Of a stretch of DNA of 10,204 nucleotides, positions 2,670-10,204 are shown piece by piece. The translations under genes and the position numbers were made by a program. This stretch comes from a virus: the UHGV virus genome UHGV-0144897, one strand, 5' to 3'. Every line of letters begins with the position of its first letter. The first letter of the stretch is position 1. Below the pieces are notes generated by a model. The model worked only from the letters and a program-made list of their open reading frames with translations. It ran no database searches and was not told the origin of the DNA.

Positions 2670-3212
2670 TCACATAACCCCCAGCATCGATGTAACCATT
2701 GTCATCAGCGGCCCCACCTGCTCCGGCATGAGGCGGAACAGCGACGCTATACCCTCGCTTACCTCTTTCAGCTTCTGATGCTCCGGAGCGTCCAGCAGCA
2801 CGGCCTGCTTTGCTTCGGCACACTCTTTCATCGCAGAGGCGATCAGCGACATCGTGTCGTTCTGCGGTGCCAGGCGGTTGCGAAATTCCAGTGGAAGTAC
2901 CGCCATGATTGCGGGCGTCAGCTGGCGCACATTCTCGCGGTACTGCTCTGAGTCGAAGCGGTTATCTAGGAAGCGAAAAAGTTTCTGGCGCGCCCTGCTG
3001 ATGTCTTCCGGGAAGCTGATGGCGGTCCCGCCCTGCTCCCGGTATTCGTTGATGATCAGCGCCGAAACGACGTCCTGATTGTCCAGCGCCGATGACCATG
3101 CACGGACCGCATCGCGGATCTTTTCGTGGCCTGGCGCCGCTTTAGGTTGAGCGCGGTTTATCATTGCTCCCGGGTGTATTCCGGTATTGTGTTGATACGC
3201 AAGTGAATGCAT
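2670..3212 (-). CDS. cII-slot regulatory protein (180 aa), family uncertain (possibly the larger CII-like/YdaT-like type)
   Basis: ORF-track 2670..3212. ATG 3212..3210 with AAGGGA RBS, 30 nt downstream of the Cro-like stop. The position between cro-like and O-like genes matches lambda cII, but the protein is about twice as long and not recognisably lambda CII. Confidence 0.6.
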   Translation of the reverse strand: MHSLAYQHNTGIHPGAMINRAQPKAAPGHEKIRDAVRAWSSALDNQDVVSALIINEYREQGGTAISFPEDISRARQKLFRFLDNRFDSEQYRENVRQLTPAIMAVLPLEFRNRLAPQNDTMSLIASAMKECAEAKQAVLLDAPEHQKLKEVSEGIASLFRLMPEQVGPLMTMVTSMLGVM

Positions 3213-3241: not shown

Positions 3242-3469
3242 TTAAGCGGCTTTTGGTTTACTGATTTCAAGAATCTGGTTTTCGGTAAACTGACCACCAG
3301 ATGCAGCTGCGATTTTGGACGCATAGCCTGTTTCGCCTGTGTAGTCGGTGCGCGGTAGGCAACCGCTATTAATCCACTTGTAAATAGCGCGGGGAGTGCG
3401 CCCGCAAGCCTTCGCCACCACCGGTACACGGATTTGTTTGATGATGTCGCCAAGGTTTTTAGGTTGCAT
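3242..3469 (-). CDS. Cro-like / YdaS-like HTH DNA-binding protein (75 aa)
   Basis: ORF-track 3242..3469. ATG 3469..3467 with GAGGG RBS. HTH-like VVAKACGRTPRAIYKWINSG. Divergent from the cI-like repressor across an operator-rich region. Confidence 0.75.
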   Translation of the reverse strand: MQPKNLGDIIKQIRVPVVAKACGRTPRAIYKWINSGCLPRTDYTGETGYASKIAAASGGQFTENQILEISKPKAA

Positions 3470-3485: not shown

Positions 3486-3559
3486 TTGAACTGTAAGTAC
3501 ATATTATGTCGGAACTGATAGTTCACGCAAGTGATATTATGATTGAACCTATGGTTCAA
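3486..3559. promoter_or_regulatory. OR-like control region: three TGAAC/GTTCA-type operator dyads with divergent PR-like and PRM-like promoters
   Basis: Site A TTGAACTGTAAGTACAT (3486..3502); site B GAACT-GAT-AGTTC (3512..3524); site C TTGAACC-TAT-GGTTCAA (3543..3559). Minus-strand promoter: -35 TTGCGT (3530..3525), 16-bp spacer containing site B, -10 CATAAT (3508..3503). Plus-strand candidate: -35 CTGATA (3515..3520), -10 TATGAT (3538..3543). Site A recurs near-identically in the pL-like region. Confidence 0.45.
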
Positions 3560-4261
3560 GAAGAAAAAGCGCGTACAGAGTTTTCCCAACGGCTAGCGCT
3601 GGCCTGTGATAAAGCTGGTTTACCTGCTCATGGTCGTCAGGCTGAAATTGCAAAGCGAATGAAGCTAACACCAAAAGCAGTAAGCAAGTGGTTCAATGGG
3701 GAGGCTATTCCAAGACGTGGCAAGCTGCAGGAACTGGCGGCTATAATTGGCACATCCTCGTCTTACCTATTAGGCGATAGTGCAGCAGATGGCATATCTG
3801 AAGGGCATATGGCAATGAGGGACGATTCTTTCCGTGTAGACGTTTTTGATATTCAAGCTAGCGCTGGGCAAGGAATTCTTGTGCGAGATGAGTTCATTGA
3901 AACAATCAGATCCATAGAGTATTCAACCGAAGAGGCTCGCGCCGTATTTGGTGGGCGCCCAGCTGACCACATAAAAATGATTGCCGTGAATGGCGATTCT
4001 ATGTCTGGCACGTTCGAGCCGAGAGACCAGATCTTCGTCGACGTGAGCATCGACTGCTTTGACGGTGACGGCATATACATTTTCGTTCTGGACAATGATC
4101 TCTACATAAAGCGCCTTCAAAAGCAGCACAAAAAATTAGCTGTGATTTCAGACAACAAAAAATATGAGACCTGGTATATCGAGGATGGTGATTTTTCATC
4201 TCTTCGGATCTGCGCGAAGGTCTTGGTAAGCCAATCTAGAGCATATAGATTTCATAGCTGA
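3506..4261 (+). CDS. cI-like prophage repressor (N-terminal HTH, C-terminal S24/LexA-type autopeptidase)
   Basis: ORF-track 251 aa. HTH GRQAEIAKRMKLTPKAVSKWFNGEAIP resembles the lambda cI recognition region. S24 motifs AVNGDSMSG (Ser) and LYIKRL (Lys). No SD before any candidate ATG (3506, 3539, 3551); start may be leaderless at 3551, inside dyad C. Confidence 0.9.
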   Translation: MSELIVHASDIMIEPMVQEEKARTEFSQRLALACDKAGLPAHGRQAEIAKRMKLTPKAVSKWFNGEAIPRRGKLQELAAIIGTSSSYLLGDSAADGISEGHMAMRDDSFRVDVFDIQASAGQGILVRDEFIETIRSIEYSTEEARAVFGGRPADHIKMIAVNGDSMSGTFEPRDQIFVDVSIDCFDGDGIYIFVLDNDLYIKRLQKQHKKLAVISDNKKYETWYIEDGDFSSLRICAKVLVSQSRAYRFHS

Positions 4262-4272
4262 GGAAGTTAAGC

Positions 4273-4860
4273 ATGGAAGCAATTAAGGTTACAGATCTTA
4301 GTGATGGAAGCGGTTTGTACGAGCTTGGCGACCACTTCATCACCTGCAAATTAAGCCACGATAAACGTTGGCAACTAGGTGCTTTCAAACGTGATGAAAG
4401 CAAGCTCAGAGATGACACACTGGCGGTTTTGAAGAATGAAAAATTCATGTTTATGGTTAAGCTCGGCGGACAGCTTTCTCCCAAGCCTCAATGCATAGCT
4501 GTTAACGGGCGATTTTTATTTTCTGTCCATACCGGCAAAGACAACAACATGGCTGCAGCCATAGTCATGGATAACACCGGGAAAGAGTTATTCAAGATAG
4601 AAACTTCCACTCACCTCATCAGTTCGGCCATATCTGAATTTGGGCGCTACATCGCCCTATCGTTTGCCGGTAGCAAAAACAAAGATGATTTTTACGCGCA
4701 CCGGCTTGAGGTCATAAACATTGATACCGGAGAGGTGTTGATGTCCGTTATCAAAACAGACTTCCTTCGATACGCTGAGCTTTCAGTTGTTGAGCCAGAC
4801 GGCGGACTTTTCGCAACTTTTAATGGTCGCACAAGGCTTGTTGATGTGACGAACCTCTAA
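4273..4860 (+). CDS. hypothetical protein (195 aa) translationally linked to the repressor; rexAB-slot moron, candidate exclusion/defence gene
   Basis: ORF-track 4273..4860. GAGGAAG RBS 6 nt upstream of the ATG; starts 12 nt after the cI-like TGA. No Walker, HTH or TM segment recognised. First 60 nt are about 45% GC. Confidence 0.8.
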   Translation: MEAIKVTDLSDGSGLYELGDHFITCKLSHDKRWQLGAFKRDESKLRDDTLAVLKNEKFMFMVKLGGQLSPKPQCIAVNGRFLFSVHTGKDNNMAAAIVMDNTGKELFKIETSTHLISSAISEFGRYIALSFAGSKNKDDFYAHRLEVINIDTGEVLMSVIKTDFLRYAELSVVEPDGGLFATFNGRTRLVDVTNL

Positions 4861-5947: not shown

Positions 5948-6586
5948 ATGGGCTCGGCAGCTACCGACATCATTCTTGAGAGCAAGAGAAGCCGAAAGAA
6001 AAATAAGGGGCCTGTCCACGGAGTTGGGATTATTGATGTTCCATTCAGTGTGCGCGGAACAGTAGATGGGAAAAAGATATACCACCGAGCCTTTAAGGTT
6101 TGGAACAGCATTTTGCAGCGATGCTATTACCCACCTATTCAAGCCAAGTATCCATCATACATAGGCTGCTCTGTTTCCCCTGAATGGCTGCTCTTCTCTG
6201 GTTTCCTTAAGTGGTGGAAAGCGAATTTTCATGAGGGCTGGGAAATCGATAAAGACCTCCTATTTCCTGGCAACAAGATCTACTCACCAGATAAATGCCT
6301 TTTCGTTCCATGCGATCTGAATAGTTTTGTAATCAGCCGAGAAGCAAAGCGCGGACCTTCTCCTATCGGAAGTACGTTTGATGCTCGTTATGGCGTTTAT
6401 AGGACAACTATCAGTCTTGGGAAAGGCCAAAAGCATTACTTGGGGTCGTTCGTTTGTCCAGACGAGGCATACACCGCCTGGCTCAGTGCAAAGTTGAAGC
6501 TTGCTGAGCGATTCAAACCAATCTGCGACGAGATACACCCTCAACTTTACGACAGCCTACTCACGAAAATTCGCTCGATTAAATGA
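5948..6586 (+). CDS. free-standing endonuclease-like protein with a C-terminal AP2-type DNA-binding domain (HNH/homing-endonuclease-associated type), 212 aa
   Basis: ORF-track 5948..6586. AGGAGG RBS 6 nt upstream. C-terminus ARYGVYRTTISLGKGQKHYLGSFVCPDEAYTAWLSAKLKLAE fits the AP2 signature (YxGV...GK...LGxF...EA..A). N-terminal W-x6-RC...Y-x-Y-x-G...W-x-x-F...F pattern recalls phage HNH-associated proteins. Family is recognition only. Confidence 0.75.
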   Translation: MGSAATDIILESKRSRKKNKGPVHGVGIIDVPFSVRGTVDGKKIYHRAFKVWNSILQRCYYPPIQAKYPSYIGCSVSPEWLLFSGFLKWWKANFHEGWEIDKDLLFPGNKIYSPDKCLFVPCDLNSFVISREAKRGPSPIGSTFDARYGVYRTTISLGKGQKHYLGSFVCPDEAYTAWLSAKLKLAERFKPICDEIHPQLYDSLLTKIRSIK

Positions 6587-6721
6587 ATTGCTAAACCGAC
6601 ACATGTGGTCGGCTTCGTTATGACAACTGGCGGCCATCCACCGCCCATTGAAACACTGAATAAATGCGTTGAAGTCTTGTATTAACCGTTCCGTTCGCCG
6701 CGATAAGGCCAAGAGGAAATC

Positions 6722-6850
6722 ATGGTAAACCAGCAGCAGATCAGAGAGGCCCAACGGCTCGCGTCGTTCGCGGTACTCCATCGCAATGCTCCGGCGTGGG
6801 AAGAAGCAAAGCGCCTTTACGCCGTCGCCATCGGGAGGACTCTTCACTGA
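6722..6850 (+). CDS. possible small ORF (42 aa), translationally coupled to the next gene
   Basis: Below the ORF-track size cutoff. ATG 6722 with AAGAGGA RBS 5 nt upstream. TGA stop (6848..6850) overlaps the ATG at 6850. MVNQQQIREAQRLASFAVLHRNAPAWEEAKRLYAVAIGRTLH. Confidence 0.35.
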   Translation: MVNQQQIREAQRLASFAVLHRNAPAWEEAKRLYAVAIGRTLH

Positions 6851-7047
6851 TGGAAACTTTATTCGCACTCGTCCTGACCGTAGCAATGACCAATGGTGAT
6901 TATCAGGATGTGATTCTCGGGGTTTATGACAGCCCGCAGGAATGCAGCCAGGCAGCTTCAGAGCAAAAAGTAACAGCCGAATGCTGGCCGGTAGAAAGCA
7001 TCCTCCGCAACGGCGAGTTCCCGGCGAAATCCATCGCGCAGCAGTAA
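6850..7047 (+). CDS. small protein (65 aa) with hydrophobic N-terminal segment
   Basis: Part of ORF-track 6796..7047. ATG 6850 has GGGAGGA 10 nt upstream. N-terminus METLFALVLTVAMTNG is signal-peptide or membrane-helix-like. Confidence 0.5.
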   Translation: METLFALVLTVAMTNGDYQDVILGVYDSPQECSQAASEQKVTAECWPVESILRNGEFPAKSIAQQ

Positions 7048-7116
7048 CCACCCTATTCAACCGATCGGCCTGGCATTACGCGGGCGGCCTTCGCACGCAC
7101 TTTTTAAGGAGTCTTT

Positions 7117-7512
7117 ATGCAACCTTACGAGCGATTAACCTCTGAACGTCTGGCAAGTTTGCCAGAAGGATCCCGACTAAAACTCGGCGGGCAAATTATC
7201 AAACTTACCGGGCGCGGGTCATTCACCAACAGTGCCGGGCGAACTGAGAACATGATCGAGTATGTCGATTCCCGTGGCGTTCCCGGTAGTTTTGCAGAAA
7301 GCATCATTCTCGACTCAGCTACCGAGTATCTCAGCTCTGTAATGTGTGCCTACTGCGGCTCGCGGCGCCATAAAAGCGATTGCACTGTTCAGACGGTATC
7401 GACCTACATGTCGACGTCACAAAAGCATTTCTGCACTGACAAAGGCTGCGCTGAGAAGTTCTTCCGCCAGAACCATTCCCGCGCCAAGACTTCACGGAGA
7501 ACGCGATGGTAA
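7117..7512 (+). CDS. hypothetical protein (131 aa) with C-terminal Ogr/Delta-like CxxC...CxxxxC zinc finger
   Basis: ORF-track 7117..7512. AAGGAG RBS 5 nt upstream. CAYCGSRRHKSDCTVQTVSTYMSTSQKHFCTDKGCAEKF recalls the P2 Ogr pattern (CPLC...YHQCQNVNCSATF), from memory. Confidence 0.7.
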   Translation: MQPYERLTSERLASLPEGSRLKLGGQIIKLTGRGSFTNSAGRTENMIEYVDSRGVPGSFAESIILDSATEYLSSVMCAYCGSRRHKSDCTVQTVSTYMSTSQKHFCTDKGCAEKFFRQNHSRAKTSRRTRW

Positions 7513-7644
7513 CTCAGCAAACCGGATTGCTGATGGTTGCCATACTCTGCCTGCTGTATGACCTGCAGCCGGCAGACCTCGAATCACTGGCCCACCAGCT
7601 TGCAGAATTTGACGCAGTTAACGACCACATTACGGAGATTAAGC

Positions 7645-8301
7645 ATGTTGAGAGTTATTGATACCGAAACTACCAGCCTGGAAGGCAGTGTGCTGGAGAT
7701 TGCCAGCGTTGATATCGTCGACGGCGTTATTTGTAATCCCATGAGCGACTTTGTGAAGCCCACTGAAGCGATTAGCTTCGAGGCTATGGCTATCCACCAT
7801 ATCACTGAAGATATGGTCGCTGACGCCCCGCTGATTGGTGAGGTTATCGGTCGTTACCTTGGCGCGCAGGCTTACGTCGCTCACAACGCGAAGTTCGATA
7901 AATCGAAGCTACCACAAATCGACGCGCCGTGGATCTGCACCGCTAAGCTGGCCCGTGCTCTTCTCCCGGATCACCCAAGCCACAGTAACCAGTACCTGCG
8001 TTACAGCCTGGGCCTGAAACCTGAACTTCCGGAAGGCCTGTATGCGCACCGCGCGCTATATGACTGCTACGTCACTGCTGAATTGCTTCTGTACATGGGA
8101 CGCCTGGCGAAATGGACGTTTGGCGAAATGCGCGCCATTTCAAACAGCCCGTCACTGATTAAGGCGATCCGGTTCGGCAAGCACAAGGGCCTGACGTTTG
8201 AAGAAATTGCGAAGGTCGACCCTGGCTATCTCCGTTGGTTGTCCAGCAACAGCGACGACGAAGACATTCTCTTCACCATCAAACACTGGCTTAAGGGGTG
8301 A
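7645..8301 (+). CDS. DnaQ-family DEDDh 3'-5' exonuclease, ExoX-like (218 aa)
   Basis: ORF-track 7537..8301 begins with TTG. Preferred start is ATG 7645 with GGAGA RBS, so the protein starts at the Exo I motif MLRVIDTETT. Also YVAHNAKFD, HRALYDCYVTAELL and C-terminal FGKHKGLTFEEIAKVDPGYLRWL, matching my recollection of E. coli ExoX. Confidence 0.9.
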   Translation: MLRVIDTETTSLEGSVLEIASVDIVDGVICNPMSDFVKPTEAISFEAMAIHHITEDMVADAPLIGEVIGRYLGAQAYVAHNAKFDKSKLPQIDAPWICTAKLARALLPDHPSHSNQYLRYSLGLKPELPEGLYAHRALYDCYVTAELLLYMGRLAKWTFGEMRAISNSPSLIKAIRFGKHKGLTFEEIAKVDPGYLRWLSSNSDDEDILFTIKHWLKG

Positions 8302-8304
8302 TTT

Positions 8305-8970
8305 ATGGCGGTGATGACTCTCATCCTTGCCGACTCCGGGTATGGCAAGACGTACAGCATCCGCAACGTTAACCCGGAAAATGCCATTCTCGCTCGCTGT
8401 ATTCGTAAGGCCCTTCCGTTCCGTAATACCGGCTGGAAACTCCACGGTAAACGCCTGCCGGATAACTCAATCCAGCGCGGGAACGTGGTTGATATCCGCA
8501 ATGGCCGTCATCTTCTTGACGTGATCCGTAACGCTGCGATTAGTGGTCGAAAGATTCTGATTATCGATGATTTTCAGGCCGTCATGCAGCACGAGAACAT
8601 GGACCGGGCCTACGAGACTGGCTACACCAAGTTTACTGAAATGGCGGAGCACGCCTGGCGCATCATCGAAGCTGCAACCCAGCTTCCTGACGACTTCCGC
8701 GTTTACTTCCTCGCACACACCGAAGAGAGCGAAGGAAAAATCAGAATGAAGACAGTCGGCAAGATGCTTAACGAAAAGCTCACTCCTGAAGGCTACTTCC
8801 CTATCGTTCTGCGCATCATCAAGCGCGACGGCAAACACCTTTTCCTGTTGAAGGGCGACGACAATGACACCGTGAAATGTCCTCCTGACCTGTTCGGTCC
8901 AGAAGTGACTGACATGGATAACGACCTAGCGGCGTTCGACAACGCAATTTCTGAATTTACTGACTTATAA
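8305..8970 (+). CDS. Sak4-like (RecA-core, AAA_24-type) ATPase, putative phage recombination/annealing protein (221 aa)
   Basis: ORF-track 8305..8970. AAGGGG RBS. N-terminal Walker A LILADSGYGKTYS; ILIIDDFQ Walker B-like. Size and position between an exonuclease and an SSB-like gene fit phage Sak4-type proteins. Confidence 0.75.
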   Translation: MAVMTLILADSGYGKTYSIRNVNPENAILARCIRKALPFRNTGWKLHGKRLPDNSIQRGNVVDIRNGRHLLDVIRNAAISGRKILIIDDFQAVMQHENMDRAYETGYTKFTEMAEHAWRIIEAATQLPDDFRVYFLAHTEESEGKIRMKTVGKMLNEKLTPEGYFPIVLRIIKRDGKHLFLLKGDDNDTVKCPPDLFGPEVTDMDNDLAAFDNAISEFTDL

Positions 8971-8981
8971 GAGAGATAACG

Positions 8982-9692
8982 ATGAACCAACCAATCAGCT
9001 TTACCTGGAACCAGCAGTCGGCAGAAGCAGCACTCAGAGCAGGATCCTCCGCTGGCATTTCTGAAACCGGCGCATATGAAGGGGTGATCACCTCCGCTGT
9101 TTATGAGTTCGGCAAGGATGGATCACAGTCGCAGGCACTTGTTCTTTCGCTCGACGCTGACGGCCAGAAAGCAAACTTCCTGCGCATCAATTTCCTCGGT
9201 CGCGACGGCACACAGACTTTTGGTATGGGATTGATCGCCGCCATCATGTGGGCTGCGCAGGTTAAAGACGCTCAGGCGCAACAGCGCCAGGGGCAAAGCG
9301 GCCCTGAATGGTGTCTGCCGGCACTGGAAGGTAAGCGTGTCGGCTTGTTCCTGCAAAAAATCCTCACCACCAAGACAGATGGCAGTGACAGCTACAAATT
9401 CGAAGTCCGGCATGTTTTCCAGCCGGGAAGTCGTCTGACCTATAAAGAGTTCACCGACAAAACGCCAGCAGAAGCGATCGCCACACTCGAGCGCACCATG
9501 AAAGACAAAGACGACCGTAAACCTCACGACTCTTCTCGCGGGGGCTGGGGTGCACCATCACATAGCGGTGGTGGGTGGGGTGGTAATCAGCAGGATCCGA
9601 ATGCGGTACCTGAATCGCGCCTGCAGCAGGCCAACCGTCAGGTATCGCAGAGCAATAAACATCCTCAGTTCGACGATGATATCCCCTTCTGA
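8982..9692 (+). CDS. SSB-like protein with divergent N-terminal domain and canonical SSB C-terminal acidic tip (DDDIPF), 236 aa
   Basis: ORF-track 8982..9692. Gly/Gln-rich linker RGGWGAPSHSGGGWGGNQQ then terminal QFDDDIPF, identical to the E. coli SSB C-terminal tip. The N-terminal 150 aa do not look like canonical SSB. Confidence 0.8.
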   Translation: MNQPISFTWNQQSAEAALRAGSSAGISETGAYEGVITSAVYEFGKDGSQSQALVLSLDADGQKANFLRINFLGRDGTQTFGMGLIAAIMWAAQVKDAQAQQRQGQSGPEWCLPALEGKRVGLFLQKILTTKTDGSDSYKFEVRHVFQPGSRLTYKEFTDKTPAEAIATLERTMKDKDDRKPHDSSRGGWGAPSHSGGGWGGNQQDPNAVPESRLQQANRQVSQSNKHPQFDDDIPF

Positions 9693-9703
9693 AAGGCATC
9701 GCT

Positions 9704-9856
9704 ATGACTCACGCTCACGACGACATCAGGGTTGGCACGCTGTGCCTTCCCTTCATTGGTAACGGCTGGCTAATGCCATGGGGTGAAGTGGTCAGCAATC
9801 CATTAAAGGCGCAGCGGCTCGCTGAGGAATTTCGGGAAAGGCAGGAGGCGGCATGA
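9704..9856 (+). CDS. possible small ORF (50 aa) coupled to the methyltransferase gene
   Basis: Below the ORF-track cutoff. ATG 9704. TGA stop (9854..9856) overlaps the methyltransferase ATG at 9853 (ATGA). Weak RBS (AAAGG). Confidence 0.3.
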   Translation: MTHAHDDIRVGTLCLPFIGNGWLMPWGEVVSNPLKAQRLAEEFRERQEAA

Positions 9857-10204
9857 CAGCGAAATACTCACTTCTGTATGTCGATCCGCCATGGTCTTAC
9901 GGCAACACCATCAGCAACGGAGCCGCTGCCGATCACTACTCCACCATGAAGCTCATCGACATCAAACGCCTCCCGGTGTGGGAACTCGCCGCCGAAAATG
10001 CAGTGCTGGCGATGTGGTACACCGGCACGCATAACCAGGAGGCTATCGAACTGGCTGAGGCCTGGGGCTTCACCGTTCGCACGATGAAGGGCTTTACCTG
10101 GGTGAAGCTGAATCAGAACGCCGAGCTGCGCATCAACAAGGCGCTGGCCGAGGGTGAAGTCACCGACTTTTACGACTTCCTCGATCTGCTTAACGCCGAG
10201 ACGC
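9853..10204 (+). CDS. MT-A70-family DNA N6-adenine methyltransferase (phage Dam-like), 5' part only
   Basis: Open to the window end (hence absent from ORF track). AGGAGG RBS 4 nt upstream of the ATG. N-terminus MTAKYSLLYVDPPWSYGN carries the DPPW catalytic motif. Confidence 0.8.
   Translation, partial: MTAKYSLLYVDPPWSYGNTISNGAAADHYSTMKLIDIKRLPVWELAAENAVLAMWYTGTHNQEAIELAEAWGFTVRTMKGFTWVKLNQNAELRINKALAEGEVTDFYDFLDLLNAET

Follow-up and report, generated by a model that had tools for sequence, protein, structure and literature searches.

Among the known systems closest to the genes considered here is that of phage HK620, whose early-left operon carries hkaM, sak4 (hkaL), ssb (hkaK) and abc2 in this order (Hutinet et al. 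2018). Purified HK620 Sak4 binds single-stranded DNA (ssDNA) with ATP and anneals complementary strands, and it supports oligonucleotide recombineering that is stimulated by the neighbouring single-stranded DNA-binding protein, or SSB (PMC5928155). The latter, HkaK, is a bona fide SSB in vitro, and its last six residues, NDYPPF, are required for Sak4 to act on SSB-coated DNA (PMC5928155). A Sak4 protein with a neighbouring, distant SSB is established biology (Hutinet 2018). Lambdoid phages keep their recombination (Rec) modules midway along the early-left operon, and DnaQ-like 3'-5' nucleases have been noted as members of such modules (Zheng et al. 2025, PMC12315714). Here we describe a cassette of three consecutive genes, coding for an exonuclease, a Sak4-like ATPase and an SSB, at positions 7645-9692 of the virus genome UHGV-0144897, which was analysed as one stretch of 10,204 nucleotides (the window). 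The cassette is very probably a lambdoid prophage Rec module of the HK620 Sak4/SSB type with an added nuclease of the ExoX family.

Cassettes of this kind are a common recombination module of Enterobacter, Klebsiella, Raoultella, Pantoea, Serratia and Xenorhabdus prophages, and in this respect the locus is largely ordinary. What is gained is a confident annotation for genes that are mostly labelled 'exodeoxyribonuclease X / AAA family ATPase / hypothetical protein' in public records. The practical value is modest, and the point of interest is that a RecA-like annealase is consistently coupled to a 3'-5' exonuclease.

A Sak4 and SSB pair preceded by an ExoX-family gene

The exonuclease gene (7645-8301, 218 aa), sak4 (8305-8970, 221 aa) and ssb (8982-9692, 236 aa) are all on the plus strand, separated by gaps of 3 and 11 nt, and the open reading frame (ORF) coordinates agree exactly with a preliminary description that had placed three consecutive, tightly spaced genes at this site. 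A Shine-Dalgarno-like sequence lies just before every start, namely GGAG (7634-7637) for the exonuclease, AAGGGG (8293-8298) for sak4, located within the 3' end of the exonuclease gene, and GAGAG (8971-8975) for ssb. The three genes are translationally coupled. All three ORFs have family matches too strong to be accidental. A consensus scan of positions 6500-10204 gave one promoter-like match, which is on the minus strand upstream of the cassette (7195-7222; 1.9 expected by chance), and eight weak terminator-like stems, several of them within the three genes (4.2 expected by chance). None of these matches stands out as a functional signal, and internal promoters or terminators were rejected for the cassette, as none is convincing. 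The Chi octamer GCTGGTGG has a single copy in the window, on the minus strand at 7592-7599. Chi enrichment was also rejected, since at least one GCTGGTGG was present in 55 of 200 shuffles and the count is not above chance.

The first gene codes for a predicted ExoX-family DEDDh enzyme in which all catalytic residues are present. The protein matches the Pfam RNase_T model above its cut-off (1.8e-19, 71 bits) and carries an ExoX-like C-terminal domain (PF20600; 3.9e-11, 42.6 bits against a cut-off of 26.5) at residues 177-204, nt 8173-8256. The NCBIfam equivalog model for exodeoxyribonuclease X (NF005937) aligns over its full length, with residues 1-217 on model positions 1-218 of 220, and scores 328.6 bits against a cut-off of 202 (1.2e-98). 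Escherichia coli ExoX (PDB 4fzx) is matched at 5.4e-50, and the nuclease domain is 53.7% identical to residues 1-164 of that enzyme. The DEDDh residues, as aligned with E. coli ExoX, are D6 and E8 (nt 7660-7668), D85, H135 and D140. In an alignment of 92 sequences, made up of 90 unique relatives from the loci described below, the window protein and E. coli ExoX, D6 is conserved in 90, E8 and H135 in 91 each, and D85 and D140 in all 92. Because the ExoX profiles match and the DEDDh residues are intact, the enzyme is expected, by homology to E. coli ExoX, to be active as an ExoX-family 3'-5' DNase on ssDNA and double-stranded DNA (dsDNA). The likeness to the E. coli enzyme thus extends to the DEDDh residues, the C-terminal domain and the equivalog model. 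Host ExoX is a stand-alone repair nuclease, whereas the window enzyme is phage-encoded, lies in an early phage operon and is translationally coupled to a recombinase gene.

The second product matches PHROG 2872, 'Sak4-like ssDNA annealing protein', over residues 1-220 (1.8e-69) and aligns end to end with HK620 Sak4, with 46% identity over 219 of its 221 residues (E 2e-66). The Sak4 homology was also recovered by tblastn against phages (E 2e-54). A Walker A motif, ADSGYGKT, is present at residues 9-16 (nt 8329-8352) and a Walker B motif, KILIIDD, at residues 83-89 (nt 8551-8571), and G12, G14, K15, D88 and D89 are invariant in 20 diverse Sak4 homologues. The protein has the size and layout of a Sak4, with 221 residues, both Walker motifs and no extra N- or C-terminal domain. 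Judged from these alignments, it is an orthologue-level relative of HK620 Sak4 and a putative core-only, RecA-like annealase.

The third product is a homologue of the HK620 SSB, with a predicted OB fold, a disordered linker and an acidic tip. Its PHROG match is to family 743, 'single strand DNA binding protein' (1.5e-38), and it shares 36% identity with HkaK over 182 residues (E 5e-26). The OB-fold core is predicted at residues ~30-180 (nt 9069-9521) by an AF2 model built from 36 homologues, which is confident at residues 31-180 (means of 10-residue blocks, 88-97). A low-confidence linker follows at residues ~184-229 (nt 9532-9668), with pLDDT values below 50 at residues 184-204 and 222-230, and the protein ends with the tip FDDDIPF (nt 9669-9689). 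Within this tip D231, D232, I234 and P235 are invariant among the 36 homologues, and D233 and F236 are nearly so. The NCBIfam model for E. coli-type SSB aligns solely to the tail (residues 181-236), and DDDIPF is the tip of E. coli SSB as quoted by Hutinet et al. (PMC5928155). The HK620 tip differs in reading NDYPPF, although both phages have an acidic tip that ends with PF. SSBs of the HK620 type have been described as DUF669-like. The window SSB has no Pfam match at E ≤ 0.1, and hence none to DUF669; HkaK likewise has no match to the same Pfam copy at E ≤ 1, so DUF669 is uninformative for this protein.

The position of the cassette is also that of a lambdoid Rec module as defined by Zheng et al. 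(PMC12315714). The window corresponds to a lambdoid prophage's immunity and early region. A cI/LexA-type repressor gene is located at 3506-4261 on the plus strand, and a long series of genes on the same strand lies downstream of it. This series is therefore the early-left (pL) operon, and the cassette is in its middle. An Enterobacter asburiae contig, L005, codes for almost the same cassette proteins (Sak4 100% identical, exonuclease 100% and SSB 99%), and an IMG/VR contig, L081, is nearly as close (100%, 99% and 99%). The prophage is probably from the Enterobacter cloacae complex. In L005, an excisionase gene is found about 3.7 kb beyond the cassette.

A PHROG and Pfam search of every sizeable plus-strand ORF of the window gave no homologue of Exo, Bet, RecT, Erf, Gam or Abc2. 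The DNA of L005 between the cassette and the excisionase gene carries no Red-type gene and no recognisable anti-RecBCD gene; beyond the cassette this contig codes for DUF1317, a 605-aa double DNA methyltransferase, three proteins without functional assignment and the excisionase. A tblastn search for Abc2 was negative in all ExoX-positive loci. Thus the combination of a 5'-3' exonuclease of the lambda Exo/YqaJ or RecE kind with a Rad52-like annealase, be it Beta, RecT or Erf, usually accompanied by Gam, that characterizes lambda Red and RecET is found neither in the window nor in the downstream part of L005.

The cassette resembles several known systems. It shares with HK620 the order of sak4 and ssb and the position in the early-left operon. 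However, HK620 is without a nuclease and has Abc2 and the orphan gene hkaM, whereas the window has an ExoX gene before sak4 and no Abc2 or Gam was found in it. The orphan hkaM occupies the exonuclease's position in HK620, and the idea that it is a decayed ExoX C-terminal domain was rejected when BLASTP gave no alignment. The likeness to lambda Red (Exo-Beta-Gam) and Rac RecET is one of genomic position and presumed purpose, which is RecA-independent recombination by a nuclease and an annealase. The differences are that the window annealase is RecA-like rather than Rad52-like, that its nuclease is a DEDDh 3'-5' rather than a 5'-3' enzyme, and that a dedicated SSB is present and Gam is not.

In the scheme of Zheng et al. 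the cassette belongs with modules composed of an SSB, a nuclease and a strand-annealing protein with no anti-RecBCD function, and their 'Pocitis76' type has the same position, contiguity and set of functions. In their terms the HK620-type SSB corresponds to 'SSB-2', and Sak4 to an annealing protein of the Rad51/RecA type. The example they name, epsilon34 gp34, comes from another DEDD family (Pfam Rv2179c-like), is partnered by Erf, a bacterial-type SSB and Abc2, and sits in a different gene order. This 'DnaQ' nuclease was rejected as a member of the same family because it is Rv2179c-like and essentially unalignable with the window exonuclease, and it is a precedent at the superfamily level only. 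In Firmicutes, the genes that a survey records beside Sak4 are those for SSB, helicases, Mu Gam-like proteins and SbcC, with no ExoX, and none of the papers in the library that we searched contains both 'Sak4' and 'ExoX'. The trio is annotated in databases and generically covered in print; it has not itself been studied.

The preliminary description had proposed an ExoX-like DEDDh 3'-5' exonuclease, a small Walker A ATPase of Sak4 size and layout, and an SSB-like protein, with no lambda-type exo, bet or gam, and had noted that Sak4-type recombinases are reported to sit beside a phage ssb, as is established in HK620 (PMC5928155). All of these points are borne out, and the three assignments hold in both profile and pairwise comparisons. 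Of the profile searches that it had also suggested, those for the DnaQ-like exonuclease and the SSB (by PHROG) gave matches, but AAA_24 remained below threshold on the ATPase, and the Pfam check alone is not decisive. Its remark that a 3'-5' exonuclease is a less usual partner holds in comparison with Red and RecET. However, the partnership is neither rare nor unnoticed, since such an enzyme accompanies the Sak4 type of the window in most related prophages and has been noted in PMC12315714.

Distribution and linkage of the three genes

A species-level scan, with one genome per species and a Sak4 alignment as the query, yielded 74 loci, five of which have too little upstream sequence to judge the presence of ExoX. 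A full-length ExoX gene ends -4 to +6 nt from the sak4 start in 33 of the 74 loci, from at least 15 genera. These include Enterobacter, Pseudocitrobacter, Huaxiibacter, Trabulsiella, Apirhabdus, Pantoea, Pectobacterium, Raoultella, Sodalis, Kosakonia, Hafnia, Serratia, Rahnella, Xenorhabdus, Erwinia and Providencia. In most of the 74 loci ssb is located directly after sak4. The linkage is tighter still in IMG/VR: of 69 loci with a Sak4 that shares at least 65% identity with the window's, 67 have the exonuclease gene directly upstream of sak4, one retains a 44-aa remnant, and in one the contig ends. Remnants of the exonuclease gene directly upstream of an intact sak4 were identified at 4787-5005 of L036 (73 aa) and at 1844-1975 of L089 (44 aa). 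The full exonuclease-sak4-ssb arrangement is also that of Citrobacter phage Omnitron and of an E. coli prophage, in which it is annotated 'exoX / AAA family ATPase / hypothetical / DUF1317'.

This distribution is visible only through protein-guided locus searches and not through searches at the DNA level. Among 50,697 phage records, a DNA-level search found the cassette only in Citrobacter phage Omnitron, where it is unannotated and 71% identical over 91%, and of 5,426 complete E. coli genomes just 2 share it, the DNA of the phage exonuclease being in a prophage there.

The identities of ExoX and Sak4 to the window proteins vary independently, with values of 95% and 67% in L016, 71% and 43% in L066, and 54% and 45% in Xenorhabdus, where the SSB has an HK620-type core. 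Because the two identities are uncoupled, the sequences indicate that, through mosaic exchange, the nuclease has been kept beside three or more Sak4/SSB sequence types. The same three families adjoin one another in the order sak4-ssb-exo in Pseudomonas prophages and in phage phiPSA1. The phiPSA1 genes, gp27-gp26-gp25, have the RefSeq names 'Sak4-like ssDNA annealing protein', 'single strand DNA binding protein' and '3'-5' exonuclease'. Besides the altered order, phiPSA1 differs in an ExoX that is only ~30% identical to that of the window. Its SSB tail shares a DDIPF motif, which is followed there by a final D. The Sak4 proteins of related Pseudomonas prophages are ~44% identical to the window Sak4. 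The linkage of the trio thus survives a change in gene order, which is good evidence of shared function.

Two small genes upstream of the cassette are co-inherited with the exonuclease gene. The nearer one is a 51-aa ORF with a hydrophobic N-terminus (7506-7661, plus strand), which overlaps the exonuclease start by 17 nt and has no match in PHROG, Pfam or NCBIfam. By tblastn, 72 of 105 ExoX-positive loci have a match to this ORF immediately upstream of their exonuclease gene. The other gene (7117-7512, plus strand) codes for a 131-aa protein with a CxxC...C..C motif (phrog_37974, 1.6e-46), which is present in 64 of these 105 loci. Both reach divergent Pantoea/Erwinia lineages at 30-37% identity, and among the ExoX-less genome loci not one carries either gene. 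They are possible accessory members of the cassette.

Some loci depart from the usual form. In Apirhabdus apintestini (L010, 5669-7643) an insert of ~2 kb separates sak4 from ssb in a cassette that is otherwise typical. In one SSB sub-lineage (L003 7304-8035, L004 4686-5417, L015, L029 and many IMG/VR loci, for example L099 and L101), DDDIPF is not C-terminal: a conserved peptide of 15 residues, APIGLPFPSHSIYAL, comes after it, and APLGLQYGRNFIYAIS and APIGKQYPSHTICVI are variants of this peptide. In Xenorhabdus indica one variant of the addition is joined to an SSB core of the HK620 type. At an internal position, DDDIPF is not expected to act as a free SSB tip. A 336-aa protein with an RNase_T domain and an SSB-like part (P0102) was considered as a natural ExoX-SSB fusion and was rejected as evidence of an interaction. 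It consists of an ExoX N-terminus, a gapped SSB fragment and an unrelated tail, sak4 is absent, and in our view the protein arose by deletion in a prophage undergoing decay.

Possible roles of the nuclease and competing explanations

We propose that the phage SSB coats ssDNA and recruits Sak4 through its DDDIPF tip, which would probably also recruit host SSB-binding proteins. Sak4 would then anneal the SSB-coated strand to complementary ssDNA, and the ExoX-like enzyme would supply 3'-end processing. The expected outcome is RecA-independent single-strand annealing, leading to genome circularisation or concatemer formation and to recombination-dependent replication. The annealing core formed by Sak4 and SSB is predicted from homology to the tested HK620 proteins.

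Several roles can be envisaged for the nuclease within this pathway. It is quite conceivable, though short of probable, that ExoX resects the 3' ends of duplexes and exposes 5' tails for annealing, with a polarity that is the reverse of lambda Exo and RecE. Such 5' tails should anneal as well as 3' tails, and resection would leave recessed, paired 3' ends for gap filling. To our knowledge, the phage nuclease-annealase pairs characterised so far all rely on a 5'-3' enzyme. An analogy might be drawn with poxvirus single-strand annealing, in which the viral DNA polymerase exposes 5' tails with its 3'-5' exonuclease and the I3 SSB is used. It is an analogy only, however, as the proteins are unrelated, the nuclease is within the polymerase and there is no Sak4-like ATPase. 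A somewhat less likely role is the trimming of unpaired 3' flaps after annealing, so that the 3' end can prime synthesis, and we give similar weight to a function of some other kind. For instance, ExoX might remove 3' tails and thereby divert substrates from host RecA. This last idea stays alive because no RecBCD inhibitor can be recognised and because such nucleases usually depress recombination in E. coli (PMC12315714).

A more elaborate proposal, which we put forward tentatively and consider rather doubtful as a whole, is that ExoX is a dedicated resection partner of Sak4 and SSB in a phage annealing pathway of reversed polarity. In this pathway both the nuclease and Sak4 would be recruited by the DDDIPF tip of the phage SSB, which mimics that of the host, and the products of the 51-aa and 131-aa genes would perhaps be components. 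If true, the trio could serve as a new system for dsDNA recombineering whose strand preferences are the reverse of those of Red and RecET. The trio might also yield a useful recombineering tool for Enterobacterales and Pseudomonas.

The sequence of the SSB tip may bear on recruitment of the nuclease. Most ExoX-positive members of the HK620-type SSB clade (Xenorhabdus L024-L028) end with DDDIPF or DDQGIPF, and the exceptions are L073 (Providencia, NNDDAPF) and L029. In the ExoX-less loci of this clade (L001, L023, L030-L040 and L150-L159) the tips are NDYPPF, GFTPF, NFSPF, NQDF and similar sequences, and an IPF end is seen in 0 of 23. The association may be a hint that the nuclease uses the IPF tip, with the caveat that DDDIPF is found without ExoX in L017, L033 and L041, and ADDIPF without ExoX in L064. 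It may also reflect a single evolutionary event.

Three competing explanations were considered for the cassette or its parts. One would be that the 221-aa ATPase is an unrelated P-loop NTPase, such as a kinase, a transporter component or an AAA+ protein, in which case the cassette would have no recombinase. Its general profile matches are indeed poor: AAA_24 (PF13479) reaches 19.2 bits and AAA_22 reaches 18.8 bits, both below a cut-off of 27, NCBIfam gave no match to the window protein, and a family profile searched against PDB sequences found nothing significant (best E 0.066). However, AAA_24 is matched by 19 of 20 members of the clade at E ≤ 0.01 (best 1.6e-10), many 68%-identical relatives have a precomputed PF13479 match, and the end-to-end alignment with HK620 Sak4 effectively refutes this explanation, to which we give almost no credence. 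Another is that the cassette is primarily a replication module, in which Sak4 and SSB serve fork restart or a rolling-circle switch and ExoX edits 3' ends. Sak/Sak4 is reported to be required for Staphylococcus aureus phage replication, with ssb mutants having a similar but weaker effect (PMC5499656, as cited in PMC5928155). Moreover, Lopes et al. put these recombinases within replication modules, and Rec modules have been linked to the theta-to-sigma switch (Zheng et al., PMC12315714). The Phage_rep_O gene and an IstB/DnaA-type ATPase gene of this prophage are nevertheless in the opposite, early-right operon, and the cassette is at the canonical position of a Rec module. This explanation, which we regard as unlikely, is also not truly exclusive, since recombination-dependent replication is the proposed purpose of the recombination.

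Other findings weigh against placing the nuclease in a common pathway with Sak4 and SSB. HK620 and about half of the Sak4 loci are without it, and ExoX is therefore an optional accessory of the Sak4-SSB pair and not a requirement. The PHROG family of the window enzyme is labelled 'DNA polymerase exonuclease subunit', and the PADLOC anti-phage defence models gave only a generic CRISPR-associated DEDDh match, for this same protein. ExoX-type genes also occur in jumbo phages with no listed Sak4 match, and Zheng et al. (PMC12315714) describe sporadic DnaQ-type genes outside Rec modules as well as the usual inhibition of recombination by such nucleases. The gene might thus be an independent passenger that codes for a proofreading or repair nuclease, for an anti-defence factor, or for an enzyme that destroys host 3' ssDNA tails and so blocks RecA/RecBCD-Chi recombination. 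The last of these is conceivable because no anti-RecBCD gene was recognised in the operon. However, a passenger is difficult to reconcile with an adjacency that is near-invariant in many genera and for three Sak4 sequence types (a spacing of -4 to +6 nt, or a stop that overlaps the next start), or with the retention of the trio despite the permuted gene order in Pseudomonas. The remnants in L036 and L089, beside an intact sak4-ssb pair, are as expected from the occasional decay of a linked gene, and there is no DNA polymerase gene nearby for which the enzyme could proofread. We therefore consider the passenger explanation slightly less likely even than a replication module, and favour a Rec module to which the ExoX-family nuclease has been added.

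Other genes of the prophage early region

The minus-strand genes to the left of the repressor include an IstB/DnaA-type AAA+ ATPase gene (858-1730), the Phage_rep_O replication gene (1715-2611) and a small 75-aa ORF that adjoins the repressor gene (3242-3469). Between the last two, the place of lambda's cII is occupied by a 180-aa gene (2670-3212, minus strand) whose product carries a YdaT_toxin domain (7.9e-28) and is not a classical CII.

On the plus strand, directly after the repressor gene, a 195-aa ORF (4273-4860) has no match in PHROG, Pfam or PADLOC, and its position suggests that it is possibly a repressor-operon moron or an exclusion gene. About 1 kb upstream of the cassette, the early-left operon includes an HNH endonuclease gene (5948-6586, plus strand; phrog_953, 3.8e-72). 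Genes of the HNH type are often mobile and are not necessarily members of Rec modules (Zheng et al., PMC12315714).

Directly downstream of ssb is a DUF1317/phrog_1998 gene (9704-9856, plus strand). It is followed by the start of an MT-A70-type adenine methyltransferase gene with a DPPW motif (9853-10204, plus strand), which runs past the end of the window. The counterpart of this gene in L005 codes for 605 residues and has two methyltransferase domains, and in E. coli ET896, phage Omnitron and phiPSA1 the trio is likewise followed by a methyltransferase.

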